A stretch of DNA of 64,000 nt from a virus (IMGVR_UViG_3300028833_000054:182482-246481), one strand, 5' to 3'. Positions 1,830 through 57,902 are shown, counted from the stretch's first letter. Notes: generated from the sequence alone by a model not told the origin. A program made the numbers and translations.

Positions 1830-2723
1830 TCAATTAGATTTGATTTTTACACTTTCTCCCTCTAATAACTTCAAAAGTGCATTATTTGTAATTCCTAAAA
1901 CAAATGAATGATTTTTTGTGTGTATTTTAATATATGAATCTTCTTTCGTTTCTGAAAAATTTTCTCTAAGATCTTTAGCAGCTTCTTCTCTCATCTTACT
2001 GGTTACCAATCCATTATGATAACAGCTGATAAAGAAATTATTATTTCTCATCCAAGGTTTGTTTCCTTGATAAATCATATCACGGTCAATATTCTGTTCA
2101 TTCCTATAAATCTTATTCATAAATTTATAGTCATAATCTCTTGTATTCTCAAATCCGCCTATAGATAATAATGTATTCAAACGAATAACTAATTGGCTTG
2201 GGTCACAACTTGCACACGGATGAATAATTCTATATCCTTTGTTATTTCCTACTCCATCTATAAAGGCAAGACGGTCAGCATATCTAACAAAACGTTGAGA
2301 ACCAAATTCATCTACCATATTCATCCATAAAGGCCTTTCATTTCCAATGCAATATTCTTTAACAGTGTCAATAAAATTTGGATGAATAATATTGTCATCA
2401 TCAAGGACATAAACAAGAGGATTTGAATCTTTATATACTCTATTCTTCAAATCTTGCAGCGGGCCATTCATCAGCTCTCCACCATAATTGTCTTGTCCTT
2501 CCTTTCCTTGATAGTACATTACATATGATATGTCATTTTCTAAACAAACTACTTCTGCTCTTTTAATATTCAACGGAGACATATCTGAATTGTATTGGTC
2601 AAAACACAATACCCATACGGGATGAAGCTCTTTTTCATCTTTGAATCTTGTTGCAATATTTTTAGCAATAGGATACAAATTCTCTGTCCTTACTACTGCA
2701 GTAACTAACAATATGTCTGTCAT
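1830..2723 (-). CDS. Putative GT-A-fold glycosyltransferase (DxD-type)
   Basis: 297-aa ORF with YVLDDDNIIHPNF (hydrophobic beta-strand followed by a DDD metal/sugar-nucleotide-binding-type motif). No other family assignment is possible by eye. Confidence 0.35.
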   Translation of the reverse strand: MTDILLVTAVVRTENLYPIAKNIATRFKDEKELHPVWVLCFDQYNSDMSPLNIKRAEVVCLENDISYVMYYQGKEGQDNYGGELMNGPLQDLKNRVYKDSNPLVYVLDDDNIIHPNFIDTVKEYCIGNERPLWMNMVDEFGSQRFVRYADRLAFIDGVGNNKGYRIIHPCASCDPSQLVIRLNTLLSIGGFENTRDYDYKFMNKIYRNEQNIDRDMIYQGNKPWMRNNNFFISCYHNGLVTSKMREEAAKDLRENFSETKEDSYIKIHTKNHSFVLGITNNALLKLLEGESVKIKSN

Positions 2724-3787
2724 AATTGTACTATTTTGTTTTTATCAGGAATCATTTCTCCAAATACAAGATAAATGTTATTTTCCCATTCTACTGGTTC
2801 CAAAAGGCATTTCCTTTTAATAAGCTGCATATCAATTATTTTGCTATCATAATTTTTCAAACAGTCCTGTATTTTTTCACAAAGAGATGATATACCGTTA
2901 TCAGTGTATTTGTCAAATTTATATGAATTTGGAATAGGATAGTCATCAAATGTACTTGCACATCCTTCATTAGGAAGCAATAGCAAGCAATCTCTTATAG
3001 CAGCTTCTCTTGGACACATCTCCCTACCTTCATATTCATAAAAATCTACATATACTTTAGCCTTATCATATAAAGCTATCATTTCTTCTTTTGTCAAATA
3101 TTTTCCAGATTTGTCTGGGCCTAGGCCAACAAATTCAATATTTGGCAAACTACCTTTTACAAGTTCAATGTACTTTCTATTTACTTCTTTGCAAGCATTA
3201 TAAAGTACAATATCTTCTTTTGTACTATTTCTTTTACTGTAAAATGAAGGATAAAGACCATGTTGAAATTTAATTCTATTTGTTATTCCATAATACAACA
3301 AATCTCTTCCTATCATCTCATTTTCATACAAATGCAAACAACGGTCTTCAATAGATTTAAGCTTCAGCAATTGTCTTCTTCTTGATATTTTTACTGAGGT
3401 ATCATTATAATCAAATCCAGATGAAAGCCACCATATAATCAATTGCAAATGTTTAAAATTACAAAAGAAATCTAAATTTTTTGGATTCTCTATCATAATC
3501 TCAGGGATAAGAAGCACGGTGTTTTCATCATCTGTTACTTCTTTCCATGTACCGTAATTTATGTCATATAGATTTTTATAATAATCATTTTGTTCAAAAA
3601 TACCGTCAAATCTATAATTGAACATTTTTGCATTTACTCCAAGAGATTTAAGATGAGCAGCCAATTTTTGCAACACTTCAGCTCCTCCTGATTTAACTTC
3701 AGGAGTATTTCCCCAAATCATCAATTTAGAATCTTTTGTAATTTTAATCATTTTTGTATGGACCGAATCTTTTTTCATAAATCTCAA
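2720..3787 (-). CDS. Putative GT-B-fold (GT4-like) glycosyltransferase
   Basis: 355-aa ORF. The C-terminal region EGREMCPREAAIRDCLLLLPNEGCAST resembles the E-x7-E / EG...EA...G nucleotide-sugar-binding motif of retaining GT-B enzymes. The real start may be an internal Met (3751 or 3721), which would remove the 43-nt overlap with the pol fragment. Confidence 0.35.
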   Translation of the reverse strand: MRFMKKDSVHTKMIKITKDSKLMIWGNTPEVKSGGAEVLQKLAAHLKSLGVNAKMFNYRFDGIFEQNDYYKNLYDINYGTWKEVTDDENTVLLIPEIMIENPKNLDFFCNFKHLQLIIWWLSSGFDYNDTSVKISRRRQLLKLKSIEDRCLHLYENEMIGRDLLYYGITNRIKFQHGLYPSFYSKRNSTKEDIVLYNACKEVNRKYIELVKGSLPNIEFVGLGPDKSGKYLTKEEMIALYDKAKVYVDFYEYEGREMCPREAAIRDCLLLLPNEGCASTFDDYPIPNSYKFDKYTDNGISSLCEKIQDCLKNYDSKIIDMQLIKRKCLLEPVEWENNIYLVFGEMIPDKNKIVQL

Positions 3788-5228
3788 TCAGATGATATTT
3801 TTCATCAATTGCTGTCATCATCTCTTTCTTATATGCTTTTCTTTGCATATAGAAATCAGTACAAATCTTTGGAATAAATCCTGGTAGATTACGTTTGTAG
3901 ACAGCACCAGATGTACACATAATTTCATCTGCTTGTCTTCTATGATTTTTGTTTTTCTCTATGAATGTTTCAGGAGAAATATTAAACTGTCTGATTGTTG
4001 TAGGATAAAGTGAAGCAAAGTCAAGTGCAATAACATTCTTATAAATTCCTGCAATTGGTTGATACACAAATGCTCCTTCATATCCTTCATCATTTCCGTC
4101 TGCTTTTTTCTTTCCCTGGTTTGGCATTACTCTGCCTTCTTTGTAAAGATATTCAGACTGAACGATTTCAAGACTTCTCACTGGACTGAATGCAGTCAAT
4201 GCATCAACATGCATAAGATTTGCAAGACCTAAGAATGCAGAACTTGTTTTAATCTTGTTGTCAATTTCACGAACAAGAATACTATCAATTGCATTATAAA
4301 AAACATATTCTGCAGGCTTTTGCCTCCACAGTTCTTTGAATCCCAATTGATGTTCTACCTTCTTTGCACCAACTACTGTATGTGATACCCAGTCAAGTTT
4401 GTTTGATTCTTTGACTTCAACAGACCTATCCCATTTGATATAAATCTCCATATAGTCATACAACAACTTATGCTTTGGAAGACTAATCTTCACTCCTGCC
4501 TCTGCCTGCTGTGGAGTATAATTATACCAAGTTCCAGTCGGTGACAAATATGAAATATCAATACCTAAATTGCTTGCACGATTGAACAAATATGGATAGT
4601 CATATCCAAAGAAATTCCAACCTGTTGCACATGGAGCTGGGTAAAGAAAACTCCTGAAAAATGTTTGCAACAATTCAACTTCAGTATCAAATGACAAATA
4701 TGTAAACTTGTAATTGGTTTTGAATCCCTTACAATGTTCATCAATCTGTTCTTGAATCCATTTTATTTCTGTTTCACTAAGCTTTACTCTTCCAAGAACA
4801 TATGCTTGGTCATCTACAACCCATGAAATTGTATTTACAGGATTTTTTGCCAAACTAGCTTCAGGAAATCCATCATCATCTACATCAACCTCAATATCAC
4901 AGAATGAAGTTTTTGGCATGTACAACTTATTGATTTCTGCAATTTCAGGGTTTGCTGCAATCAAATCTAAAAGAATTTCATGAATTCTTTGTTCAGTTAA
5001 AAATCCATTTACTGGGTCTTTTACAACAGCTTTATAATCCCAAGACTTAAATGAACCATCTGGAACTTCTCCTCGTTTACAATATTTCCATTGATACAGT
5101 TGTGTCTGTGGAATAATATAAGTTAAATATGATATTCCACCTTCTTTATTGATATAAGACAGCACAAGCTGACGAGCTGGCTGTCCTTGTTCATTCAATA
5201 CATCTCGTATTTCTGTAGTAACTATCAT
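3744..5228 (-). CDS. Family-B DNA polymerase, N-terminal fragment (3'-5' exonuclease domain plus palm motif A), T4 gp43-like; C-terminal half missing from the window
   Basis: Exo I FCDIEVD, Exo II GWNFFGYDYPYL, Exo III YNAIDSILV, motif A IALDFASLYPTTIRQFNISPETF (compare T4 gp43 DLTSLYPSIIRQVNISPETI), then GFIPKICTDFYMQRKAYKKEMM (compare T4 GIIPKEIAKVFFQRKDWKKKMF). The ORF stops about 30 aa later, before motif B (KxxxNSxYG) and motif C (YGDTDS). Confidence 0.8.
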   Translation of the reverse strand: MIVTTEIRDVLNEQGQPARQLVLSYINKEGGISYLTYIIPQTQLYQWKYCKRGEVPDGSFKSWDYKAVVKDPVNGFLTEQRIHEILLDLIAANPEIAEINKLYMPKTSFCDIEVDVDDDGFPEASLAKNPVNTISWVVDDQAYVLGRVKLSETEIKWIQEQIDEHCKGFKTNYKFTYLSFDTEVELLQTFFRSFLYPAPCATGWNFFGYDYPYLFNRASNLGIDISYLSPTGTWYNYTPQQAEAGVKISLPKHKLLYDYMEIYIKWDRSVEVKESNKLDWVSHTVVGAKKVEHQLGFKELWRQKPAEYVFYNAIDSILVREIDNKIKTSSAFLGLANLMHVDALTAFSPVRSLEIVQSEYLYKEGRVMPNQGKKKADGNDEGYEGAFVYQPIAGIYKNVIALDFASLYPTTIRQFNISPETFIEKNKNHRRQADEIMCTSGAVYKRNLPGFIPKICTDFYMQRKAYKKEMMTAIDEKYHLIEIYEKRFGPYKND

Positions 5229-5242
5229 ATAAATTATATCTT

Positions 5243-5785
5243 TTACTGGCTTACATTACTACCGAATCCTTTTTCTCCTCTTTTACTTTCTGAATGATAC
5301 TCTTCAAATTCTTTGGCACTAATCAAATTAGGCTTGCTCAAAATAATTGGTGAATGAATAAACTGAACAAGCTTCTGTCCTGTTCTGATAATAGTTGCTT
5401 CATCTGTAAAGTTTGCAATACCAAGATGAACTTCACCAGAGTAATCAGAATCAACAATCTCCGCAGTATAAACAAGACCTTGCTTTGTTGAAACACCAGA
5501 CTTATTTGCAGCCATCAACATTGTTCCAGGAGCAATTGCAGTCTTAATTCCTGAAGGAATAAGAATCCTTGACCCAGGAAGAAGAGTAATCTCAAGAACA
5601 GTCTTATCTTCAATTTTGGTGATATTATATCTTACATGAGCGTTTGGATTTTTAGATATTAAATCATGCAAGAAATCTCTCCCATATTCAGGTACATAAA
5701 AATCAACACCAGCTGCTTCAGCAGTTCCTCTTGTCAAATCATGTACATTTCTAACTTTAATGTAATTAAATTCATCTAATTTCAT
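5243..5785 (-). CDS. dut: dUTPase / dCTPase-family (trimeric dUTPase fold) nucleotidohydrolase
   Basis: All five dUTPase motifs are present: AAGVD, KSGVSTKQG, IVDSDYSGE, GQKLVQ and RGEKGFGSN. In T4-like phages the homolog (gp56) is a dCTPase/dUTPase. Confidence 0.75.
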   Translation of the reverse strand: MKLDEFNYIKVRNVHDLTRGTAEAAGVDFYVPEYGRDFLHDLISKNPNAHVRYNITKIEDKTVLEITLLPGSRILIPSGIKTAIAPGTMLMAANKSGVSTKQGLVYTAEIVDSDYSGEVHLGIANFTDEATIIRTGQKLVQFIHSPIILSKPNLISAKEFEEYHSESKRGEKGFGSNVSQ

Positions 5786-34349: not shown

Positions 34350-35153
34350 TCACTTAATCATATTGAGATATTCATCTTCAGTGAACTTAGAAATTCCTAA
34401 CTCATTGGCTTTCTTAATCTTAGCAGCACCTGCTTTGTCACCAACAATAAGAAATGTCAATCCTCTGGATATTCCAGATGCATATGTACCACCATTTGCA
34501 ATAACAGATTCTTTGATTTCATCTCTAGAGAAGTTCTTTAAAGTACCTGTTGCAAGAATAGTCATTCCGAACAATTTGTTACCAGTTGTCATAGGCTTAT
34601 CAAACTTTGTATTAAAATATTTGTAAACATTCTGAAGTTCTTCCTTTTCAGATGCCATGTAATTATGTACATTATTTCCTGCAACTTCACCAAGAACACC
34701 AACAACATCATCTAATGATGCCTTTTCTATTTCTTCAATAGAACCAAATCTCTCAAGAAGTTTCTTAGCATTTACTTTTCCAATACCTGCAATACCAAGA
34801 GACATCAAAACATTTTCTGCCTTTGCTTTGTTTCTTGAATTCATCAATTCATCAACAATATTTCTTGCAACAACTGGTCCACAACCTGCATGCTGCAATT
34901 GTTCTGCAGTAAGATTATATAAATCCCACCAGTTTCTGATATTAAGTGCAGGAACAATCTTTCGGAGAGTCTTTTCAGACAATCCATCAATATTCATACA
35001 CTCCTTAGTTACAAAATAATTTAATTTTGCAATTCTTCTTTCTTCACAATCAGGATTGCTACAATAAAGATGAGCACCATCTTCAAGGAGTCTTACTATC
35101 GGAGCTCCACAAAACGGACAAACAGTCGGTTCTTCAATTTTAATAGCTTTCAT
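34350..35153 (-). CDS. ligA: NAD-dependent DNA ligase, C-terminal fragment (Zn-finger, HhH and BRCT domains)
   Basis: CPFCGAPIVRLLEDGAHLYCSNPDC (Cys4 Zn finger), HhH region, and BRCT GMTILATGTLKNFSRDEIKESVIANGGTYASGISRGLTFLIVGDKAGAAKIKKANELGISKFTEDEYLNMI. The start codon overlaps the stop of the inserted GT2 gene (TAATG). Confidence 0.8.
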   Translation of the reverse strand: MKAIKIEEPTVCPFCGAPIVRLLEDGAHLYCSNPDCEERRIAKLNYFVTKECMNIDGLSEKTLRKIVPALNIRNWWDLYNLTAEQLQHAGCGPVVARNIVDELMNSRNKAKAENVLMSLGIAGIGKVNAKKLLERFGSIEEIEKASLDDVVGVLGEVAGNNVHNYMASEKEELQNVYKYFNTKFDKPMTTGNKLFGMTILATGTLKNFSRDEIKESVIANGGTYASGISRGLTFLIVGDKAGAAKIKKANELGISKFTEDEYLNMIK

Positions 35154-36406
35154 TAATTAGCAGGAGTATATATGTTACACAATGTTTTTAATTTTTCCTT
35201 TTCAAAAGGTTTACTCATATCAGTGCATTGATATTCTTCATTCCACAAAGGGTCATCAGAACCAAGTTCAAGAATTCTATTATGAATTTGTTCATCATAT
35301 TTTTTTCTCAAAAGAGAATTGGTTCTTTGTATTTCATCAAACCTATGTGATTGAGCAGTAGTTCCATCCCTTCTTGTTGTATTGTTTCCTTCATGTTGAA
35401 TATACAAAACTTTATCAACAATAGAAATTTTTCCATACAGAAATGTGCGAATCAACAAATCCATATCATCAAGAACTGATAACTCTATATTATGACCGCC
35501 AATCTTATGATAAAATTCTTTTTTCCAACATCTAACATGATTAGGAAGAGCATGAATTCCTCTGACAGAAACTGCATTAACAAGTGCAGTCAATGCAATA
35601 TTTCGTTCTTGGCCCATTACAAATACTTTTCTGTATTCGCCAAGACCATAAGCAAAATTCTCAGAATAATAAATTTCATGTCCATTTACTTCTTCCATTG
35701 CATGAGAATAAACAAAATCACTGTCAGGATATGCAGCAAAAGTATTATTCAGTTGTTCAAGACAATCTGGAAGAAGTTCATCATCATGGTCTACTTCAAC
35801 AAGATAATCTCCATCACAAGCAGAAGCAATCATATGCTTGTTGAAACCAATATTTCCATGATTAGTGATATTCTTGACTACTACAATTCTTGGGTCATGG
35901 AAATGTTCAATCATTTCAGAAGTAGCAGGAGAAGTACTATCATCAAGAATATACCAATTCCAATTGTGATAAGTTTGATTTAGCAAAGACTCATACAGTC
36001 TTACAAACATCTTTTTTGGAGTATTGAATGTACAAGTGAAAATTGAAAACAACTTTACTTCTTGTGGACGTTCTCTATTAATATTATTAAGAAATACTCC
36101 AATAATTGCTCTTGCTAAAGTATCAGGTTCAAAAGTATCTTTGTGAATCCATTTCTTTCTGAACTCAAATGACATTTCATTAAGAGGTTTGAAATCAATA
36201 TTTTCACCTACTGTAATAATACAATCAAATCCTTTTGCTTTATTGAGTTCAGACAAAAGATTGTTAGTATTTTTAACTATATGAAAATCAAACCCTTTCT
36301 CACCATAATACCACTTATACTCTGGGTCAGTTGAAGTAGTGACCAAAGAGTAATCATGTTCATCGGCGAGAGGGTCAATGATAAATGCTGAAATTCTATT
36401 CTTCAT
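35153..36406 (-). CDS. GT2-family (GT-A fold) glycosyltransferase inserted between the two halves of ligA
   Basis: FSIFTCTFNTPKKMFVRLYESLLNQTYHNWNWYILDDSTSPAT (classic GT2 N-terminus) and DxD motif VEVDHDDELLPD. Extra ~130-aa N-terminal domain of unknown function. Both ends overlap the ligA fragments by 1 nt. Confidence 0.7.
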   Translation of the reverse strand: MKNRISAFIIDPLADEHDYSLVTTSTDPEYKWYYGEKGFDFHIVKNTNNLLSELNKAKGFDCIITVGENIDFKPLNEMSFEFRKKWIHKDTFEPDTLARAIIGVFLNNINRERPQEVKLFSIFTCTFNTPKKMFVRLYESLLNQTYHNWNWYILDDSTSPATSEMIEHFHDPRIVVVKNITNHGNIGFNKHMIASACDGDYLVEVDHDDELLPDCLEQLNNTFAAYPDSDFVYSHAMEEVNGHEIYYSENFAYGLGEYRKVFVMGQERNIALTALVNAVSVRGIHALPNHVRCWKKEFYHKIGGHNIELSVLDDMDLLIRTFLYGKISIVDKVLYIQHEGNNTTRRDGTTAQSHRFDEIQRTNSLLRKKYDEQIHNRILELGSDDPLWNEEYQCTDMSKPFEKEKLKTLCNIYTPAN

Positions 36407-37680
36407 TATTCTAATTCTATATTTTCAGTAAGGCAGCGTTCATAGTCAACTCCAGTGACTTTCGGAATGACAGCTCCTCCTTTCTCTACAAAGACGTAAG
36501 CACCTATCTGTAGATTCAATTGATTGATATAATCAATGTTGTTCAAAGAGGCTTTAGATACAGTAGAACCGTCAATCTCAACAGGTTCAAGGATTCCTAC
36601 TGGAGTAAGCTTGCCAGTTCTACCCATCTGCCACTCAACACTAAGAAGCTTAGTAGAAGCAGATTCTTGTTTGAACTTGAAAGCCTTGGCCCATTTAGGT
36701 ACCTTCTGTGTATAACCCATCTGAAGTTGTTTCTCAATTGAGTCAAATTTGATCACACAACCGTCCATGCAGTAATCCTGCTTCTTCAAAAATCTATCTT
36801 CAAATTCTTTGATGAATGTAAGAACAGTATGTTGGTCAAGCGCAAGCCAATAATTAGGTGCATTGAAACCAAAAATATTTGCTACGGTAAGAGCCTTTGC
36901 TTGGCTGTCAAGATAAAGTTTATTGAATAAATCGTCATCATCAACAAATACTGCAAACGGCATAAACAAAAGCTTACGACTAGCTGTAACTTTCGGGTCA
37001 AGTTGTTTAATAGAGCCGGCAGCACAATTTCTCTCATTCGCAAACAAAGGAAGACCTTGCTCTTCACGTTCTTTATTGATTCTTTTGAATTCTGCTTTTG
37101 ACATCAGAATCTCACCGCGGATTTCAACATACTTAGGAACATAAATCTCCCAAAAATGATAGTCATTGACTACATCTGGATATATCATTCCATTTTCGTT
37201 TTTGTTTCCGTTAATTTTTAACTTCAAAGGAATAGACCTGATAGTCTTTACATTCTCAAGAATATTGTCACCTTTAAGACCAGAACCTCTAGTAGAAGCA
37301 GAAACAAGAACACCATCAACATAGATAAGAGAACAAGAAACTCCATCATATTTAGGCTCAACTATCCATGTATTGTATCCGTCATCTACAGATTCCATCC
37401 AAGACTTAAGCTCTTCCATATCATAGCAATTTGCAATAGAGCCCATGATACGTTTTCTTTCAACCGTAGTGAAGCCATCTTGCAAATCAGAACCTACACG
37501 TTGAGTCGGAGAATAAGGAAGAATGTAACCAGTCTCAGCCTCGAGTTCTTCCAACTGTTTCATTTTCATATCAAACATATAGTCTGACATGGTAGGTTCA
37601 CACTTTACATAATAATCATAATTTGCCTGGTTGAGTTCTTCAACAAGGTCTTCAATCAAACCATTTTTACTAATATCCAT
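36406..37680 (-). CDS. ligA: NAD-dependent DNA ligase, N-terminal fragment (Ia, adenylation/NTase and OB domains)
   Basis: SPTQRVG, adenylation motif EPKYDGVSCSLIY (KxDG), TRGSG, NERNCAAGS, AFKFK, MGRTGKLTPVGILEPV, collinear with E. coli LigA residues 1-~405. Ends exactly at the OB/Zn-finger boundary. Confidence 0.8.
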   Translation of the reverse strand: MDISKNGLIEDLVEELNQANYDYYVKCEPTMSDYMFDMKMKQLEELEAETGYILPYSPTQRVGSDLQDGFTTVERKRIMGSIANCYDMEELKSWMESVDDGYNTWIVEPKYDGVSCSLIYVDGVLVSASTRGSGLKGDNILENVKTIRSIPLKLKINGNKNENGMIYPDVVNDYHFWEIYVPKYVEIRGEILMSKAEFKRINKEREEQGLPLFANERNCAAGSIKQLDPKVTASRKLLFMPFAVFVDDDDLFNKLYLDSQAKALTVANIFGFNAPNYWLALDQHTVLTFIKEFEDRFLKKQDYCMDGCVIKFDSIEKQLQMGYTQKVPKWAKAFKFKQESASTKLLSVEWQMGRTGKLTPVGILEPVEIDGSTVSKASLNNIDYINQLNLQIGAYVFVEKGGAVIPKVTGVDYERCLTENIELE

Positions 37681-37710
37681 AACAAATATTGTATATTAGA
37701 ATATTATTAG

Positions 37711-39491: not shown

Positions 39492-40112
39492 TTATCGTCT
39501 TCCTCCACGGTGTTGATTTCCATTAGGTCTGTGATTTTCACTAGGTCTTGAACCAGGTTGTGGCTTTGGTGGAGGTGGTGTAGGACGATACCTTGGAAGA
39601 GGCATTGGTCTTGGACGATAATATAGTCTTGTATGATTATATGGAATAATTGTTCTTTCATAATAAAAATCATAAATTCTTCTATAAAGAACATGATTTC
39701 TAATTACTCCTGTATCTTTATCAACATACTTGTAAATACCTGTAATATCAATTACACCATTTAAATACATTTGATATAACTCAGGAAAATGATTCTTCAA
39801 TACTTCCATCATTTCAGAATGATTTCTGTAATAGTACTTCATAAAATGATACTTGACTTTGTAATCAACTGTACCATCTTCAAGTACAACTTCTTTCATT
39901 GAGTCAACATCCAAAACTCCTTCCATATAATATGTATAAAGTTGAGGATAATGATTTGCAAGAACATAAGAAATCTCGTCCATCTCTTTGACTCTTCTTT
40001 GATTTGCATAAGATGCTGTTGCACAAGATATGAAAATCATTGATGAAATCAATACGAGTAATAAACTAAATTTTTTCATAGTTAACGATCTTTGTAATTT
40101 TTCTCTAGCCAA
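39492..40112 (-). CDS. Secreted/lipoprotein with two ~45-aa internal repeats and a Pro-rich basic C-terminal tail
   Basis: Signal peptide MKKFSLLLVLISSMIFISCATA (the likely start is the internal Met at ~40079). Repeats LKNHFPELYQMY / LANHYPQLYTYYM. C-terminal PRPMPLPRYRPTPPPPKPQPGSRP. Confidence 0.45.
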   Translation of the reverse strand: MAREKLQRSLTMKKFSLLLVLISSMIFISCATASYANQRRVKEMDEISYVLANHYPQLYTYYMEGVLDVDSMKEVVLEDGTVDYKVKYHFMKYYYRNHSEMMEVLKNHFPELYQMYLNGVIDITGIYKYVDKDTGVIRNHVLYRRIYDFYYERTIIPYNHTRLYYRPRPMPLPRYRPTPPPPKPQPGSRPSENHRPNGNQHRGGRR

Positions 40113-41185
40113 GTTTGATATGTTCCAGAAATAACATTGTTCAACCAGTCTTCATTGTCTAAATACCATTTGACAGTTTTTTCAATTCCGGTGTCAAATG
40201 TTTCTTCTGGCTTCCAACCAAGTTCATTCTGCAATTTACTTGAGTCAATAGCATATCTCAAATCATGGCCTTTTCTATCTGTTACAAATTGTATGCTAGA
40301 CTCATAAGTTCTAACCCACAACGGCTCAGGATTTGTAATATATTTTTTATTGCTTCTAAGTTGTTTTTCATGTGCAAATACTTTAATAATCTTCTTGATT
40401 ATATCAATATTGCTCATTTCGTGGTTTCCTCCAACATTGTAAGTTTCACCAGACTTTCCATTGTGAAAAATAACATCAATTGCTGCTGCATGGTCTTCAA
40501 CATATAACCAATCTCTTACATTTTCACCTGTTCCATAAACTGGTATTTCTTCATGATTCTTCAACTTGTTTATTACAAGCGGAATAAGTTTTTCTGGAAA
40601 TTGATTTGGTCCGTAATTGTTACTGCAATTGCTAATTGTAACATTCAATCCATAAGTATCATGATAAGCTTTTACAATATGGTCTGAACTTGCTTTACTT
40701 GCAGAATACGGAGAATGAGGATTATATGGAGTAGTTTCAGTAAACTTATTCTCTGGATTCATATCAAGTGCACCATAAACTTCATCAGTTGAAACATGAT
40801 GAAATCTATGAATTGCAAGATTATCTTTCCACTTGTTAAGTGCAACTTCTAACAATCTGTATGTTCCAACAATATTAGTATTGATAAACTCACCCGGGTC
40901 AAGAATACTTCTGTCAACGTGACTTTCTGCAGCAAGATTGATTATATCCGTAACATTGTATAAATCAAATGCGTTTTCAACATCTGCTTTATTTGCAATA
41001 TCACCACAGAAAAACTTGTAATTCTTACTTTCTTCAATATCTTTCAAGTTTTCAAGGTTTCCCGCATAAGTAAGTTTGTCAAAATTAATAATCAAATAAT
41101 TAGGATAGTTTTTAACGAATCTCCTAACAACGTGACTACCGATGAAGCCTGCTCCACCGGTAATCATTATAACTTTCTCAAACAT
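40082..41185 (-). CDS. rmlB: dTDP-glucose 4,6-dehydratase
   Basis: ITGGAGFIGSHVVRRFVKNYPNYLIINFDKLTYAGNLENL N-terminus. SDR YxxxK (YSASKASSDH). Full-length colinearity with RfbB. Confidence 0.85.
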   Translation of the reverse strand: MFEKVIMITGGAGFIGSHVVRRFVKNYPNYLIINFDKLTYAGNLENLKDIEESKNYKFFCGDIANKADVENAFDLYNVTDIINLAAESHVDRSILDPGEFINTNIVGTYRLLEVALNKWKDNLAIHRFHHVSTDEVYGALDMNPENKFTETTPYNPHSPYSASKASSDHIVKAYHDTYGLNVTISNCSNNYGPNQFPEKLIPLVINKLKNHEEIPVYGTGENVRDWLYVEDHAAAIDVIFHNGKSGETYNVGGNHEMSNIDIIKKIIKVFAHEKQLRSNKKYITNPEPLWVRTYESSIQFVTDRKGHDLRYAIDSSKLQNELGWKPEETFDTGIEKTVKWYLDNEDWLNNVISGTYQTWLEKNYKDR

Positions 41186-42107
41186 AAAATCTAAATACTT
41201 TTTCTACTACTCTATCAACAGAAGTTGCCCACTGTGGAATAAAAGCATTATAAATGTTAATAACTTTGTCTTTTGATAACAAACCAAACTTAGGTCTCTC
41301 GACATTGGTAGGATAGTCTGATGTCTTACAAGGTTTGATTACTCCTCCAAAGAACATTGACCTCTTAGCAGCTTCTCTCTTATATGCAGCGAGAACCTCA
41401 CAAGCAAAATCATACCAAGTTGTATAACCTAAATTTGAAAAATGATAAATTCCTGATGTAAATGGTACAGTATTAGATGAATCACCAACAATGACATCAG
41501 TAACAATGAATTTTGCCAAATCACCAGCATAAGTAGGAGTTCCGAACTGGTCATCAACAACATTCATATCCTTGTTGTCCTTCATATTCTGAAGAGTAGT
41601 CAATACGAAATTCTTTCCGTATTCAGAATACAACCAAGATGTTCTGATAATCATATACTCAAGGTCTCCGCGTTTTGCAATATTCTGAATCTCTGTCTCA
41701 CCAAGAAGTTTTGTTCTTCCATAAGTGTTGAGAGGACCAGTAGGAGAATCTTCAGTCTTCAAATCAGGACTTCCGTCAAATACATAATCAGTTGAAATAT
41801 GGATAAGACGAATTTTTGACTTCTCGCAAGCTTCAGCAAGAAGCTTAGGACCATATCCATTTGCAAGGATAGCTGCATCTTCATTGTCAGTACAACCACC
41901 AACATTTGTATATGCAGCACAATTGATTACATAATCATAATCGCCGTCTTCGACATATTTCTTTACATGAGTAGAATCCGAAATATTCATTTCAGGCAAA
42001 TCTACTGCATCATATTCAAAAGAATCTCCGTAATTCTTTATAGCATCAATAATACACTTGCCAAGTTGACCATTGGCACCAGTGATAAGAATTTTAGTTT
42101 TCTGCAT
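41178..42107 (-). CDS. rmlD: dTDP-4-dehydrorhamnose reductase
   Basis: KILITGANGQLGKCI Rossmann start and YGRTKLLGE (YxxxK). About 300 aa. Confidence 0.8.
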   Translation of the reverse strand: MQKTKILITGANGQLGKCIIDAIKNYGDSFEYDAVDLPEMNISDSTHVKKYVEDGDYDYVINCAAYTNVGGCTDNEDAAILANGYGPKLLAEACEKSKIRLIHISTDYVFDGSPDLKTEDSPTGPLNTYGRTKLLGETEIQNIAKRGDLEYMIIRTSWLYSEYGKNFVLTTLQNMKDNKDMNVVDDQFGTPTYAGDLAKFIVTDVIVGDSSNTVPFTSGIYHFSNLGYTTWYDFACEVLAAYKREAAKRSMFFGGVIKPCKTSDYPTNVERPKFGLLSKDKVINIYNAFIPQWATSVDRVVEKVFRFYV

Positions 42108-42675
42108 AATAATCTATATTATAATCAAATAAATTGTTTTCATCTATATCTCCCCAAGTAGGGTGGCAGCAATCCTTCTTAGATAAAATAATAGCTCCAT
42201 CATATACCTTTCCCCAATCAATTCCCACAGAATTCCAGTCAAGTGCTGCTTCAGATTCTTTATCATAAGGATTATCACACTTGTATTGGAAGATTGTATC
42301 ATCTTTCAATGCAATAAATCCGTGGGCAAATCCACGAGGAATGAAAAATTGTTTATGATTGTCTTCAGTAAGAAATACACCGACAAATTTTCCAAAGGTA
42401 GGAGAACCTTTTCTAATATCTACTGCAACATCATAGACTGCACCTTTTACTACTCTAACGAGTTTTGACTGTGCAAATGGTGGTTTCTGCCAGTGAAGAC
42501 CTCTGATAACTCCAGCTCTTGATTTACTTTCATTATCTTGAACGAAAGTTGTGTTGCAAACTAATTCTCTAAACTGTTTGTCATTAAACGATTCAAAAAA
42601 ATGACCTCTGTCATCTTTAAAAATATCTGGGTCAATCACATAGACACCAGGAATTTCTTGTTCTGTTACTTTCAT
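42094..42675 (-). CDS. rmlC: dTDP-4-dehydrorhamnose 3,5-epimerase
   Basis: Cupin signature FVQDNESKSRAGVIRGLHWQ...KLVRVVKGAVYDVAVDIRKGSPTFGKF...PRGFAHGF. Confidence 0.8.
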   Translation of the reverse strand: MKVTEQEIPGVYVIDPDIFKDDRGHFFESFNDKQFRELVCNTTFVQDNESKSRAGVIRGLHWQKPPFAQSKLVRVVKGAVYDVAVDIRKGSPTFGKFVGVFLTEDNHKQFFIPRGFAHGFIALKDDTIFQYKCDNPYDKESEAALDWNSVGIDWGKVYDGAIILSKKDCCHPTWGDIDENNLFDYNIDYYAEN

Positions 42676-42739
42676 ACAATTATAACTATACTATTCTTTA
42701 AAATTGTATAAAATATATGAACAAAATATTAAACAAAAA

Positions 42740-53594: not shown

Positions 53595-54551
53595 TTATAT
53601 AATATTCTCTATCTTATATTTTTCTATAACTTTATCATAATTGCCTTCTTCGACAAGACAGTCTTTAAAATACATTGCAGTATTAAACATCACTTCTTTA
53701 ACATTTGCAACGGTAACATCATTCTTTACTATATGTTTGTCATCATATAGAGTTAAAGCAATATAAGTAAAATATGCAATATAGTAGTATTGTAAATTGC
53801 TATATTTTTGATAACATGCTGGTTCTTCTACTTCCTTTTCATAATCCCATGTTGAAGAAGCATTTGGACCTGTATATATAATTTTATACTCATCTACTAT
53901 ATGAAGTTTTCCACCTAATGCCATTACTTGTAACCAAAATATAGTATCACCTGCCATATAATGAATACATTTTGGATGATGTTTGTCATAAAATGATTTT
54001 CTTAAACAAGACCCAGGATTGTGATACAAATATACATCATCACAATATCCTGCCAAATGAGATATTGCTGGAGGACAATTATTAAAATATGAAACCCACT
54101 CATCATAATTTTTAATAATATGTGGTTCATATCTGCTTTTATCAATATTATTGATATCTATTATCCTCGTATTTTCATAAAATATCAATTTTCCGCTACA
54201 TCCATCTATATCAGGATGTGCATCCATATAATTAACAAAGCACTCTAAAAAGTCTGGAAGCAATACATCGTCATGGTCAAGTCTAAAAAGCAATTCGCCG
54301 GAAGCATATTCATATGATTTGTTGAAAGAATCAATATATGGCCATTTACAATTTGTAGTATTTACAAATAATTTAAACCTCTTGTCTCTTACACAATATT
54401 CATTTGAAACAATATTTACCGTATTGTCTGTAGAATAATCATCTACTATAATTACCTCATAATCATTGAAAGTTTGAGACAATACAGAATCTAATGTCCG
54501 GCGAATTGTTTTTTCAGAGTTATATGTTGTTACACATATACTTACTTTCAT
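53595..54551 (-). CDS. GT2-family glycosyltransferase (paralog C) between nrdD and nrdG
   Basis: VSICVTTYNSEKTIRRTLDSVLSQTFNDYEVIIVDDYSTDNT, KRFKLFVN, YIDSFNKSYEYA, DHDDVLLPDFLE. Confidence 0.75.
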   Translation of the reverse strand: MKVSICVTTYNSEKTIRRTLDSVLSQTFNDYEVIIVDDYSTDNTVNIVSNEYCVRDKRFKLFVNTTNCKWPYIDSFNKSYEYASGELLFRLDHDDVLLPDFLECFVNYMDAHPDIDGCSGKLIFYENTRIIDINNIDKSRYEPHIIKNYDEWVSYFNNCPPAISHLAGYCDDVYLYHNPGSCLRKSFYDKHHPKCIHYMAGDTIFWLQVMALGGKLHIVDEYKIIYTGPNASSTWDYEKEVEEPACYQKYSNLQYYYIAYFTYIALTLYDDKHIVKNDVTVANVKEVMFNTAMYFKDCLVEEGNYDKVIEKYKIENII

Positions 54552-54554
54552 ATA

Positions 54555-56297
54555 TTAATTTTTAATATGTTTTACTCTATCTTTTGTTTCTGCAATTTTA
54601 CCGTTGTTAAAAGCAGTAGTATAATTACCTGTAAGATAACCAGTTACACGACGAAGTCTTGTAATATTGTCACTTCCACACTTTGGACATTTTTCACCAA
54701 TCTCATCTTGATAACCGCAATCCTCACAGCAGTCAAGAGGAAGGTTGACAGCAAAATAAGGAATATCCTTGTCCATTGCATAATTGACAAGAGTTTCAAG
54801 AGCATCAATGTTGTTCTTTACTGTAGAAGGAAGCTCAACATAAGTAATTGTTCCTGCATTTCCCTTGTTTGCCCACTGTGACTCAATATCGATCTTCTGG
54901 AAGGGGTCCATCTCTTTCCAAACAGGAACGTGGATAGAGTTGGTGAAATAATCTCTGTCAGAAACTCCTTCAATGATTCCGTATTTCTTTCTGAAGTTCT
55001 TCAATGCAGTGTAGCAAAGATTCTCTGCAGGTGTGAAATAAACACCGAAATTAAGTTTGTATTCCTCCTTATACTTCTTGCAAGTATCACCATACAACTT
55101 AACTATTTCATCTGTGAGTTCCTTTCCTATACCAACAAAATGGTCACAGCCAAACAAAGCGTGAGAAGTCTCATTCATACCGAGAAGGCCGATGGTCAAA
55201 GTTCCGTGCTTGAGAGCCGATACAATTCCTTCTTCAGGAATATAACCAGCCATTGTGTGATTTTCATACATAAACTTTGCTGACTCCATAGGTTGTTTGC
55301 AAATCCAGTTGAAACGCTCAATCAACATATCCTTTGCTTCTTCCAACTTTGTCTTCATCATCTCAATGAAATATCTCTTCAACATTTCATCGGTATACAT
55401 ATTGTTGGTCTCTGCAATACATTTCTCCTTAGCTTCCATTGCAATTGTAGGAAGAATAATTGTAACAGGACAAATGTTTCCTCTACCGTCTTTCTGCTGT
55501 CCGAGACCATTAATATCAAATCCATTAACAGTTCTGCAACCCATTGTAGCATAATATGTTAAAGGATTATTTCTATCCCAACCAGCATTCATTGTAGTAT
55601 CACAGTTACAGTAGTTAGGATAAATTCTCTGCGCAGTTGACTTCAATGCAAGGCGGAACAAATCGTAGTTAGGTGAATCAGGTTCGCGGTTTACTCCCTT
55701 CATACATTGGAAAATTCCACAAGGGAAGATTGAAGTTCTGCCAAATTTACCAAGACCTTCAATTGAAACTTCAAGAAGAGCCTTAGTAATCATTCTTCCT
55801 TCATCAGAAGTACAGGTACCGTAGTTGATACTTGTAAAAGGAAGTTGATTTCCTGAACGTGACTGAAGAGTATTCAAATTATGATACATTCCTTCAACTG
55901 CCTGATGGATTTCTTTCTTAAGCATATCCATTGCATAATTGTAAACCTTAGCAGTGCAAGTTGCATAGAATTGGTCATTGATTGAAAGATTTTTCAACTC
56001 TTCTCTTGTCTTATTATCAATATCTTTCTCATCAATATATTTTGCTCCATCTTTAAAATGCTTGTAAAAACTCATTCTAACATAAGGAACCATTGTCCAA
56101 TCAAGATGGCTAGCTGAAACACCACCAAACTGTTGGAGTGACTGAAGTTGGAAAATAACAGCAACGAGCTGCATAGCAGTATTGACTGAACTTGCAGGAC
56201 GTACATCTGTCTGACGGGTATTGAAACCCTTATCTAGTAAATCATCAAAAGGAATAGTTAAACAGTTATGCATTCCTGTTGCATATGAATCTAAATC
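54555..56297 (-). CDS. nrdD: Anaerobic ribonucleoside-triphosphate reductase, exon 2
   Basis: Colinear with the NrdD body (NCLTIPFDDLLDKGF... matches E. coli NCMLIDLKGMLTQGF...). C-terminal Zn ribbon CCEDCGYQDEIGEKCPKCGS and glycyl-radical motif RLRRVTGYL. The in-frame extension upstream of the annotated Met gives ...DLDSYATGMHNC, matching NrdD HDLDYSPFFPMFNC. Confidence 0.8.
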   Translation of the reverse strand, partial: DLDSYATGMHNCLTIPFDDLLDKGFNTRQTDVRPASSVNTAMQLVAVIFQLQSLQQFGGVSASHLDWTMVPYVRMSFYKHFKDGAKYIDEKDIDNKTREELKNLSINDQFYATCTAKVYNYAMDMLKKEIHQAVEGMYHNLNTLQSRSGNQLPFTSINYGTCTSDEGRMITKALLEVSIEGLGKFGRTSIFPCGIFQCMKGVNREPDSPNYDLFRLALKSTAQRIYPNYCNCDTTMNAGWDRNNPLTYYATMGCRTVNGFDINGLGQQKDGRGNICPVTIILPTIAMEAKEKCIAETNNMYTDEMLKRYFIEMMKTKLEEAKDMLIERFNWICKQPMESAKFMYENHTMAGYIPEEGIVSALKHGTLTIGLLGMNETSHALFGCDHFVGIGKELTDEIVKLYGDTCKKYKEEYKLNFGVYFTPAENLCYTALKNFRKKYGIIEGVSDRDYFTNSIHVPVWKEMDPFQKIDIESQWANKGNAGTITYVELPSTVKNNIDALETLVNYAMDKDIPYFAVNLPLDCCEDCGYQDEIGEKCPKCGSDNITRLRRVTGYLTGNYTTAFNNGKIAETKDRVKHIKN

Positions 56298-56381
56298 CGT
56301 TTACTTCTATATTTTCATATAAAAACTGACTATATCATCAACCGTTTGGTTGTTGCGCACTTCGAATAGTTCTGCATTACT

Positions 56382-56690
56382 CTATTCTACATCCTTACAC
56401 TCATCAGGATTAGTCGATACACTGTTATGAGTTCTTTTTTCTCTTCTAATTTTAAGAGATTTTAAGTGCATATGTTTTTGAAATTTTGGTTCCCAAGAAT
56501 TTTTCAGAAGTTGTTCAATTATAGTTCTTGAAATATTAAAATTATCTTTACAATACTTATATAATTTCGTATGACCTAAACAAGTATAAACTAAAATGTC
56601 ATTATAATATACAAAATATTCATAAGGACAATCTCTGTCCATCATTTTGTTATAAGCATCTTCTGATAATTTTTTTTCCTTTATTTGCAA
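56382..56690 (-). CDS. Hypothetical ORF inside the intron (possible detached/frameshifted C-terminal DNA-binding part of the homing endonuclease)
   Basis: 102-aa ORF overlapping the 3' end of the GIY-YIG ORF by 41 nt in another frame. Confidence 0.3.
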   Translation of the reverse strand: MQIKEKKLSEDAYNKMMDRDCPYEYFVYYNDILVYTCLGHTKLYKYCKDNFNISRTIIEQLLKNSWEPKFQKHMHLKSLKIRREKRTHNSVSTNPDECKDVE

Positions 56691-57210
56691 TACTTAATTT
56701 TCTTAATTCTTCTTCTGTTTTTATTCTTCCTGTATTTGCTGCAATTAATTTAGAAATATGTTCAGGAGAAAGATGCTTTCCTTTATTGATTTCACTTAAT
56801 TTTTTTCTCGTTTCTAAAGAATGTGTTTTTCCATACATCGGATTTAATTCTCCAATACGAGTTGATGCAAATTTACTAAGTTTATCATGGCGTTGAGGAC
56901 TATCATAATTTCCAGTATTTCCTCCACATCCTCCTTCATGAAAATTAGCTTTACATTCTCCTTTATCCCAGTATTCTTTTATAAGTTGTCTTTCTAAATC
57001 AAATGCTGCAGATTCTTCCAAATTTTCAAAGAGCAATTTTACATCTACATCTGTAGGATATTTAGAAATAATATTTTTGAAATAGTCATTTCTACTATGA
57101 ACAGTATCTAAATATCTATTTCCTGTTCCTTTTCCTATATAAAATATCTCATCAGTTGATTTGAAGAAATATGCGTAAATATAAAATTTTTTCATATGCA
57201 TTGAACTCAA
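56650..57210 (-). CDS. GIY-YIG homing endonuclease with NUMOD3 repeats
   Basis: YIYAYFFKSTDEIFYIGKGTGNRY (GIY...YIG), downstream Arg/Glu/Asn catalytic residues, and two NUMOD3-like repeats MYGKTHSLETRKKLSEINKGK and HLSPEHISKLIAANTGR. Confidence 0.75.
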   Translation of the reverse strand: MSSMHMKKFYIYAYFFKSTDEIFYIGKGTGNRYLDTVHSRNDYFKNIISKYPTDVDVKLLFENLEESAAFDLERQLIKEYWDKGECKANFHEGGCGGNTGNYDSPQRHDKLSKFASTRIGELNPMYGKTHSLETRKKLSEINKGKHLSPEHISKLIAANTGRIKTEEELRKLSIANKGKKIIRRCL

Positions 57211-57404
57211 TTTAGCTCGGTATTTCCAGCTATCCAGAATCTGGACCTTAGGTTCTCTTAGTCAGTGTATTCGTGAGTGATTCAATCTCCTTATTTAACT
57301 GATACCGATAGCAAACAAATATTATTTTAATATTTATTCACACCCCAGCAGTTGGGTTCACGCAATTTTCAAAATCTGTTCCCAGATTAGGCCACAATTA
57401 ATTT

Positions 57405-57902
57405 ATGGATATAAATTTCATTGTTCAAATGATTGTTTCTTGCCATTTCTGACATGCAATTCCACAAAGCAAAGTCTTTTGTAATGACTCTTGTTGCTTC
57501 ACCGACTCGGCCACCGAATGATTTCTCATCTACATTAGCATTCTGATTCTGAACATTCTTTGCTTCAAGCTTTTCCTTGATACCTTTCATTATCTTGGAT
57601 TTCTGTTCACGAACTCTTGTTCTTTTGTCTCTGTAAAGAATAAAAGCTTTTGCAACTTCAAACTTATTTTTCTTAATCAAAAACTTCTCAATGACATCTT
57701 GAATGTCTTCAATTGACGCTGTTCCTTCAGCAGAATCTTCAAACTTTGCAAGGTCTTCATCAAGAAGTTCCAAAAATTTTGGAGTGCATTCTTGCTTGCA
57801 GGAACTGAATGCTTGACCTACGGCCTTGTGTGCTTTTTCACGATTGTAAACTTCCTGTTTACCGTCTCTTTTGATTACTTTTTCTAGCATATATTTTACC
57901 AA
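57405..57902 (-). CDS. nrdD: Anaerobic ribonucleoside-triphosphate reductase, exon 1 (ATP-cone plus N-terminal region)
   Basis: ATP-cone VIKRDGKQEVYNREKAHKAV. Ends ...NNHLNNEIYIH, aligned with NrdD ...GDIHYH. The ORF reads 5 further codons (KLIVA) into the intron before a stop at 57387-57389. Confidence 0.75.

Follow-up and report, generated by a model that had tools for sequence, protein, structure and literature searches.

In a viral DNA stretch of 64,000 nucleotides (nt) (IMGVR_UViG_3300028833_000054:182482-246481), which we call the window, the sequence of the anaerobic ribonucleotide reductase gene nrdD is distributed over two open reading frames (ORFs), and this locus raises the question of whether we are dealing with two genes or with the exons of a single interrupted gene. 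A first-pass annotation had interpreted it as nrdD interrupted by a group I-like intron with a GIY-YIG/NUMOD3 homing endonuclease. The data presented here make it very probable that the 1107 nt at 57404..56298 (minus strand, as are all features of this locus) constitute a group I intron of the phage IA type, a mobile element that has inserted into nrdD. The NrdD sequence of the upstream ORF (57387..57902) ends with ...NNEIYIH and then runs into KLIVA and a stop codon. The downstream ORF (54555..56273) encodes the remaining NrdD, and its frame is open in 5' direction as far as position 56297, where the additional codons translate to DLDSYATGMHNC. The insert is preceded by the exon U 57405 and its last base is G 56298. 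Thus, the collinearity of both ORFs with NrdD, their ends and the borders and length of the insert were all correctly described in the first-pass annotation.

To the resulting gene, exon 1 (57405..57902) contributes the ATP-cone and the start of the NrdD core, and exon 2 (54555..56297, first residues DLDSYATGMHNC) contributes the NRDD core, the glycyl-radical domain and the C-terminal Zn site. In Pfam searches, exon 1 matched ATP-cone (2.5e-17) and exon 2 matched NRDD (1.4e-135). When the spliced 746-amino acid (aa) product was aligned with solved NrdDs of the PDB (8p23, 1.2e-116; 9d3x; the T4 enzyme 1h78), it was colinear with them from end to end and the alignment was gapless across the junction. 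Judged from the PDB alignment and from the gene called in a relative (contig L083; L-numbers denote the contigs compared), ATG 57890 is a more likely start codon than TTG 57902. The insertion falls between the H and the D (H|D) of the conserved HxHD segment (phase 0). This site is located 13 codons upstream of the active-site cysteine equivalent to T4 Cys79, and the junction expected after splicing is ...ATATCCAT joined to GATTTAGATTCA.

We then surveyed this junction in 80 viral contigs (IMG/VR), the NrdD of which is 64-71% identical to exon 2. Here, we found that the homologues of exon 1 and exon 2 were 0 nt apart at residue H|D in 79 contigs, and the remaining one begins within nrdD. Among cultured phages, the nearest ones are Thomasclavelia phages TR-TP1/2 (61% identity), and their nrdD is also uninterrupted at the H|D site. 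The fusion of the two parts in 79 of 80 loci and the continuous reading frame of TR-TP1/2 therefore indicate that the two ORFs are exons of one gene, not separate subunits, and that the insert is an optional element. A megablast search with 24 kb of the window against GenBank phages gave no match.

Judged from its sequence, the insert has the anatomy of a group I intron with the P7.1/P7.2 elements of subgroup IA and an ORF in P6a. It extends over 56298..57404 and ends with omega-G 56298, a base that also terminates all six other introns found at the same site. P1 (57392..57408) is formed by exon CCAU (57408..57405) and intron AA, which pair with the guide UUGUGG (57397..57392), and the U.G wobble at the 5' splice site (exon U 57405) is unchanged in 5/5 homologues. 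The P2 hairpin AAUCUG-GGAA-CAGAUU (57373..57388) shows compensatory changes among the homologues. The 5' strand of P3 (UUGCGUG, 57359..57365) finds its partner GUGCGCAA at 56360..56353, and three versions of this helix exist if the introns of Enterococcus phage EFP01 and Clostridium phage CS01 are counted: that of the window, CUACGUG/GUGCGUAG (L041, L068, L075, EFP01) and CCACGUG/GUGCGUGG (CS01). Between the 5' strand of P3 and P4, two extra hairpins (57313..57356; CCC..GGG and GAAUAAAUAUU..AAUAUUUGUUU) are present, both of which also occur in EFP01, in CS01 and in the DNA-polymerase intron of Staphylococcus phage Romulus. In P4 (57217..57308), UCGGUAU (57308..57302) pairs with AUACCGA (57223..57217), and the helix encloses an inserted hairpin (CAGU/ACUG), an A-rich junction and P5, which is capped by a terminal hairpin.

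The 5' strands of P6 (GCU) and P6a (UGAGUUC) are located at 57203..57216 and their partners are AGU (56423..56421) and GAACUCA (56434..56428), respectively, so that the P6a loop contains the endonuclease ORF (768 nt). The 3' half of the catalytic core (56326..56416, from P7 5' to P7 3') starts with the P7 5' strand CGACUA (56416..56411), and P7.1 (56410..56391), P7.2 (56387..56364), the P3 3' strand (56360..56353), P8 (CAACC-AAAC-GGUUG, 56352..56339), J8/7 and the P7 3' strand UAGUCAG (56332..56326) follow in this order. The P9 hairpin UUUUAUAU-GAAA-AUAUAGAA occupies 56305..56324. P7 is formed by the R-like CGACUA and the S-like GAUAUAGUC, and the long-range helix P3 crosses P7 (pseudoknot). 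The first-pass annotation had described the flanks of the insert as GC-richer, and this enrichment is real but modest (36% GC in the 5' part and 33% in the 3' part vs. 27% in the ORF part). As alternative 5' strand of P7 we considered CUGACUA (57265..57259), which would place the ORF in P7.1/P7.2, and dropped it, since the Rfam alignment and T4 sunY place this strand at CGACUA 56416..56411. This heptamer, situated within the P4-P5 region (57259-57265) and retained in close homologues, is complementary to the P7 3' strand (56332..56326) over all of its 7 nt. It could be a decoy or an alternative pairing partner of P7 3', or a coincidence.

The assignment of the insert to the group I class is consistent with covariation and with the best-ranked Rfam matches. 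The Rfam model for group I introns is RF00028, which has a gathering score of 50 bits. When the 3' half of the intron was scanned alone, RF00028 was top of 4227 families (22.9 bits, E 2.8e-4, model positions 134-253), and its alignment placed P7 5' (CGACUA), the P7.1/P7.2 insert, P3', P8, J8/7 with P7 3' (GAUGAUAUAGUC) and P9 as proposed. In a positive control, the same tool scored the T4 nrdD intron at 105 bits. Moreover, the window sequence CGACUA-AUCCUGAUGAGUGUAAGGAU-GUAG is near-identical to the P7-P7.1 sequence CGACUA-UCCCUGAUGAAUGUAAGGGA-GUAG of T4 sunY. For covariation, we used an ORF-deleted alignment of five same-site introns, from which RNAalifold independently recovered P1 (with its U.G pair), P2, the long-range P3, P4, P5, P7.1, P7.2, P8 and P9. 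After P6 and the P7 pseudoknot had been included, 95.8% of the cells were paired vs. 32-39% in controls with slid partners, and compensatory changes were present in 16 pairs vs. 0-3 in the slid controls. None of 500 shuffles matched the observed covariation values. Because the variable hairpins of the window sequence were misaligned by MAFFT, a few of the cells counted as unpaired are alignment artefacts. The sequence of P6a is wholly different between the homologues, yet it is perfectly paired in each of them and encloses either the ORF or a short loop. P7.2 showed one compensatory change; P7 and P7.1 are invariant, and these two helices draw their support from the homology to T4, not from covariation.

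Next, we analyzed the reading frames inside the P6a loop. The first-pass annotation had reported a free-standing GIY-YIG/NUMOD3 ORF (57210..56650) and a possible frameshifted C-terminal extension (56690..56382). Both descriptions proved correct: frame 1 (57201..56650) and frame 2 (56690..56382) are parts of one endonuclease gene (56382..57201), and the second frame is its true C-terminal part, as comparison with intact homologues demonstrates. Removal of a single A restores a protein of 272 aa with a GIY-YIG domain, a NUMOD3 motif and a C-terminal DNA-binding part. ATG 57201 or ATG 57195 is a more likely start than TTG 57210. The +1 frameshift lies in an A8 run (56670..56677), where the window reads AAAAAAAA and the relative on contig L083 has AAAAAGA (7 nt). 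Thus, the reading frame is not intact in the window copy, and intact versions of 270-278 aa are found in L083 (public protein P0001), L021 and L041. P0001 has exactly 272 aa and is 95% identical to the repaired window protein.

The endonuclease family comprises 1313 members at E<=0.001. NUMOD3 (PF07460) was detected downstream of the catalytic domain with 42-44 bits (cut-off 20.4), PHROG 314 ('homing endonuclease') was matched at 3e-26, and the precomputed Pfam annotation of 120 homologues listed NUMOD3 only. The AlphaFold model of P0001 (mean pLDDT 82) has an N-terminal beta-beta-alpha-beta-alpha domain, and when it was compared with the PDB by Foldseek, the top 13 matches were all GIY-YIG domains (probabilities 0.98-1.00), including the N-terminal domain of UvrC (TM 0.54-0.63) and PD-T4-3. 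Among 49 homologues, YIY(7-9), YIG(21-23), R29, E70 and N86 are invariant or nearly so; R29, E70 and N86 are invariant in the family, Y7 and Y9 are near-invariant, and their positions match those expected for GIY-YIG catalytic residues. A PDB profile search returned weak matches only, to I-TevI (1i3j, DNA-binding domain, E 0.0075) and to a GIY-YIG protein. The matches of a plain PDB sequence search were confined to Kunitz domains and were discarded as spurious, since they were caused by the motif GGCGGN.

The closest relative of the window intron is that of L083, which is 96.7% identical (37/1107 aligned positions differ), carries an intact ORF and lies on a contig with the same gene order. 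In the RNA core, these two introns differ at 2/340 nt, both of which are in loops (P4a interior and P8 loop), and nearly all differences therefore fall into the ORF. There, 16 nucleotide changes belong to codons that differ synonymously and 18 to codons that differ non-synonymously. Compared with the 2/340 nt of the RNA core, these numbers show that selection is stronger on the ribozyme than on the protein. The 3' end of the ORF overlaps P6a', P7 and P7.1, and the ORF of L041 stops 1 nt out of register with that of L021. This part is therefore conserved as RNA, not as protein.

At this single nrdD site, a whole series of alleles can be seen. It comprises introns with an intact ORF (L083; L021, 1121 nt; L041, 1130 nt), the frameshifted copy of the window, introns without ORF (L068, 324 nt; L075, 330 nt), the intron of EFP01 with an HNH ORF (942 nt) and empty sites (79 loci). 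The exon bases TCCAT|GATTTAGAT are common to every allele with the intron, including that of EFP01, the NrdD of which is only ~33% identical. The consensus of the intron-less alleles is ATTCAT|GATCTTGAT; an example of an intron-less nrdD sequence at this site is ...AATGAAATTTATATTCATGATCTTGATGC... The CC of the flanking exon is explained by the P1 pairing, which needs these two bases, and the shared 3' exon tract would be the trace expected from co-conversion during homing. Two additional searches were of little use for finding further copies: a pattern search of IMG/VR with TAATTGTGGC..CGTGAACC returned 11 chance matches in addition to EFP01, and a search with the 16-mer CGACTAATCCTGATGA gave mostly chance matches.

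Several observations weigh against the interpretation as a mobile, self-splicing group I intron. Rfam did not report a group I match in the whole window at the gathering threshold, on the 1.5 kb of 56100-57600 at E<=10, or on the 5' half of the intron alone, and every RF00028 score obtained for the window and its homologues was below the gathering score. Even on an ORF-less same-site homologue, for which RF00028 was the best family, the score was low (19.9 bits, E 0.0056). The low scores are explained by the 768-nt ORF within P6a and by the extra hairpins of the atypical 5' half, which departs from the textbook layout by the two hairpins between P3 5' and P4 and by one hairpin between the P4 5' strand and J4/5. 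The covariation analysis is based on few sequences (five, including three close ones), which also served, in part, to derive the structure. For the endonuclease, the Pfam GIY-YIG models stayed below threshold (best LEM-3_GIY-YIG, 14 bits vs. a cut-off of 27), and the E-values by which Foldseek supports the GIY-YIG fold are modest (5e-3 to 0.1). Moreover, the frameshift renders the mobility of the window copy doubtful. Finally, we infer splicing as well as the activity and the target of the endonuclease from sequence.

These observations have to be balanced against three other explanations of the locus. The ribozyme may no longer splice, so that nrdD would be a pseudogene, and the frameshifted endonuclease indeed testifies to some decay of the element. 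We consider such a dead intron highly unlikely, since the core differs from that of L083 at no more than the two loop positions, every helix is still paired in the window copy, both exons are open over their full length and nrdG downstream of nrdD is intact. Even less credible is a split gene without splicing, in which a free-standing homing endonuclease cassette separates two assembling NrdD subunits, as in nrdA-a/nrdA-b with mobE of Aeromonas phage Aeh1. Functional split ribonucleotide reductase (RNR) genes without intron are documented (PMC3653736), GenBank lists the nrdD halves of EFP01, CS01 and TR-TP2 as separate coding sequences, and exon 1 has its own stop five codons past the junction. 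However, exon 2 lacks a start codon at the junction and its first ATG comes 8 codons later, inside conserved sequence. Within the insert, conservation is highest in the non-coding flanks (the 2/340 nt mentioned above), which also carry compensatory base-pair changes. Rfam recognizes the group I core elements, and ORF-less copies of 324-330 nt would be inexplicable if the insert were an endonuclease cassette.

That the insert is instead an intein or a group II intron has practically no chance of being correct, since both the reading frame and the encoded domains refute it. It is true that phage RNR genes often harbor inteins as well (PMC3653736), but the insert is out of frame with the exons and has a stop in the exon frame five codons in, so that it cannot be an intein. 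A reverse transcriptase or maturase domain was not found; the sole ORF is the GIY-YIG/NUMOD3 endonuclease, and a group II family did not appear in any of the Rfam scans (whole window, 1.5 kb, 3' half, 5' half). The group I interpretation, by comparison, brings together the intron anatomy, the covariation and the top-ranked, though sub-threshold, Rfam matches, which agree with each other and with the classification made in the first-pass annotation.

If the insert is a group I intron, the following sequence of events may be envisaged. nrdD would be transcribed as a single pre-mRNA and the intron RNA would fold in such a way that P1 presents the exon U.G pair to a core consisting of P3-P8, P4-P6 and the guanosine site of P7, with P7.1/P7.2 in addition. 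An external guanosine would attack after U 57405, and the freed exon 1 would then attack after omega-G 56298. The ligated exons should read ...NEIYIH-DLDSYATGMHNC... and encode a full-length NrdD of ~742 aa. An intact GIY-YIG/NUMOD3 product would cut the intron-less nrdD of co-infecting phages near the site, and repair from the intron-bearing copy would then transfer the intron together with short flanking exon tracts. The window element probably still splices, and its mobility is probably lost or nearly lost because of the +1 frameshift in the A8 run.

The first-pass annotation had equated the architecture of the locus with that of the T4 nrdD (sunY) intron, which is of group IA2 and carries I-TevII. 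This comparison holds for the host gene, the intron class with its near-identical P7-P7.1 and R/S elements, and the endonuclease superfamily, since I-TevII is also a GIY-YIG enzyme with NUMOD3-type motifs. It does not hold for the insertion site, which is ~135 codons away: the T4 intron follows nt 538 (codon 180, phase 1, ...AYE-Y-EVN...), whereas the window site corresponds to T4 H66|D67 (phase 0). Nor does it hold for the ORF, which in T4 lies 3' of the complete core and in the window in the P6a loop, or for the endonuclease sequence (25% identity to I-TevII over 185 aa, pairwise E 7e-4, hhalign probability 33%). Moreover, neither the two post-P3 hairpins nor the one that follows the P4 5' strand are present in the T4 nrdD intron, and its RF00028 score is 105 bits vs. 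~20 bits for the family of the window intron. The window element is therefore a separate insertion event of a related intron type, not a T4 orthologue. In this sense, the element was rightly called an independent instance; it is not an isolated one, since introns at the same site exist in other phage contigs and in EFP01.

In some respects, the window intron also resembles the td intron of T4, which has an IA2-type core with an endonuclease ORF looped out of P6a. Its I-TevI is a modular endonuclease with an N-terminal GIY-YIG domain followed by a linker and a DNA-binding part, and the family profile of the window endonuclease matches the I-TevI DNA-binding domain (1i3j) weakly, as mentioned above. 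On the other hand, the host gene of td is that for thymidylate synthase and the catalytic domains are without detectable close sequence relationship.

Another close counterpart is the unannotated nrdD intron of EFP01 (NC_047796, gap between gp123 and gp125). It shares with the window intron the site (IHFH|DLDYSP), the P1 guide AAUUGUGG, the two post-P3 hairpins, a covarying P3, an identical J8/7-P7 sequence and the location of the ORF in the P6a loop. It differs by its HNH-type endonuclease, a canonical P4-P5 without inserted hairpin, larger P7.1/P7.2 and the more distant NrdD. In the deposited record, this locus (L002 1981-2922; NC_047796 ~116705-117646) appears as two 'anaerobic ribonucleotide reductase' coding sequences and a hypothetical protein; in reality, it is a 942-nt group I intron with an HNH ORF. 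In a literature search, we did not find a published description of the EFP01 nrdD intron. The DNA-polymerase intron of phages Romulus/Remus (Silviavirus) has P3, the two hairpins and then GCUAA-P4-P5 in common with these introns, and over 110 nt its identity to the EFP01 intron is 78%. Host gene and ORF are different, and the element is not annotated as intron in the record.

Among RNR genes, nrdD is the one most often split in phages (PMC3653736), and for the nrdD introns of gut jumbo (Jug) phages splicing is supported by metatranscriptome/RNA-seq reads (PMC12880540). Other phages with an nrdD fragmented by group I introns, besides the Jug gut phages, are Lactococcus phage 949, Clostridium phage CS01, Fusobacterium phage Fnu1 and Thomasclavelia phages TR-TP1/2. 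The endonucleases of nrdD introns elsewhere differ from that of the window and are mostly of HNH type. The CS01 intron has the same core type as the window intron and is inserted at QQFG|G. nrdD of TR-TP2 is split, in association with an HNH endonuclease, at about aa 421, a site inferred from the lengths of the coding sequences only.

Further observations concern relatives of the intron at other places. Related IA-type introns occur at at least three other nrdD sites, MG|CRT, NxG|V..LNLP and QQFG|G (L069, L070, L071, L073, L077; L030, L054, L074, L080; CS01 = L022), and the MG|CRT site, which is occupied in several metagenomic relatives, is that of the radical cysteine equivalent to T4 Cys290. 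nrdD of TR-TP2 (L001) and of Fnu1 (L025) is also split by endonuclease genes. Matches of 74-81% identity to the P5-P4'-P6 segment of the window intron (57273..57211) lie in unannotated gaps beside the endonuclease genes of other split genes, namely in the DnaE-like polymerase of Bacillus phage G (L023), in Clostridium phage CS266P3 (L024) and in Staphylococcus SPbeta-like phages. The same intron lineage is therefore present in other genes. Introns with the same P7-P7.1 were also seen in L034, L049, L062, L063, L079 and L082. In these, a GIY-YIG ORF (MGFIYKITN...) follows P3' (P8 region), and several of the ORFs have in-frame stops.

For annotation, these results mean that nrdD of the window is a single gene instead of two genes accompanied by two small ORFs. 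This correction also applies to the deposited sequences of EFP01, CS01 and TR-TP1/2, where the nrdD halves stand as separate proteins. Phage RNR genes are already known to contain many group I intron sites, to which the H|D site is added, and the series of alleles at this site provides natural material on the gain, decay and loss of a homing endonuclease. Group I introns with homing endonucleases in phage genes of nucleotide metabolism are well known, and the finding, real but ordinary, leaves the understanding of how such elements work unchanged. A more far-reaching interpretation would be that the intron belongs to a structurally distinct IA-type lineage of gut Firmicutes-type phages, characterized by the two post-P3 hairpins and, in this sub-branch, by the hairpin between P4 5' and J4/5, which Rfam misses even when the ORF is absent and which displays all stages of the homing cycle at one nrdD site. 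We regard this as rather unlikely. If it were true, many such introns would have been missed and the genes they interrupt would have been annotated as split genes. It is still less likely that slippage at the A8 run restores the endonuclease frame at a low level.

In the neighborhood of the interrupted nrdD, a family-2 glycosyltransferase gene (53595-54551, minus strand) separates nrdD from nrdG, and it is missing from the same place in the relative L083 (7272-7329). In other parts of the window, too, genes may be divided. The NAD-dependent DNA ligase is encoded in two ORFs (34353-37695, minus strand), one with the adenylation and OB domains (36409-37695) and the other with the Zn-finger, HhH and BRCT domains (34353-35156), and a family-2 glycosyltransferase ORF of 423 aa (35156-36424, same strand) is located exactly between them. 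The ligase may work as two subunits. The family B DNA polymerase ORF at 3747-5255 (minus strand, 503 aa) includes the exonuclease domain and just the start of the polymerase domain. It is adjoined, with an overlap of ~40 nt, by an ORF of 355 aa (2723-3787, minus strand) without Pfam match, and the family B DNA polymerase of this region (2723-5255) may be split or frameshifted. In addition, the window carries several family-2 glycosyltransferase genes and an RmlB/RmlD/RmlC-like set at 40085-42690.

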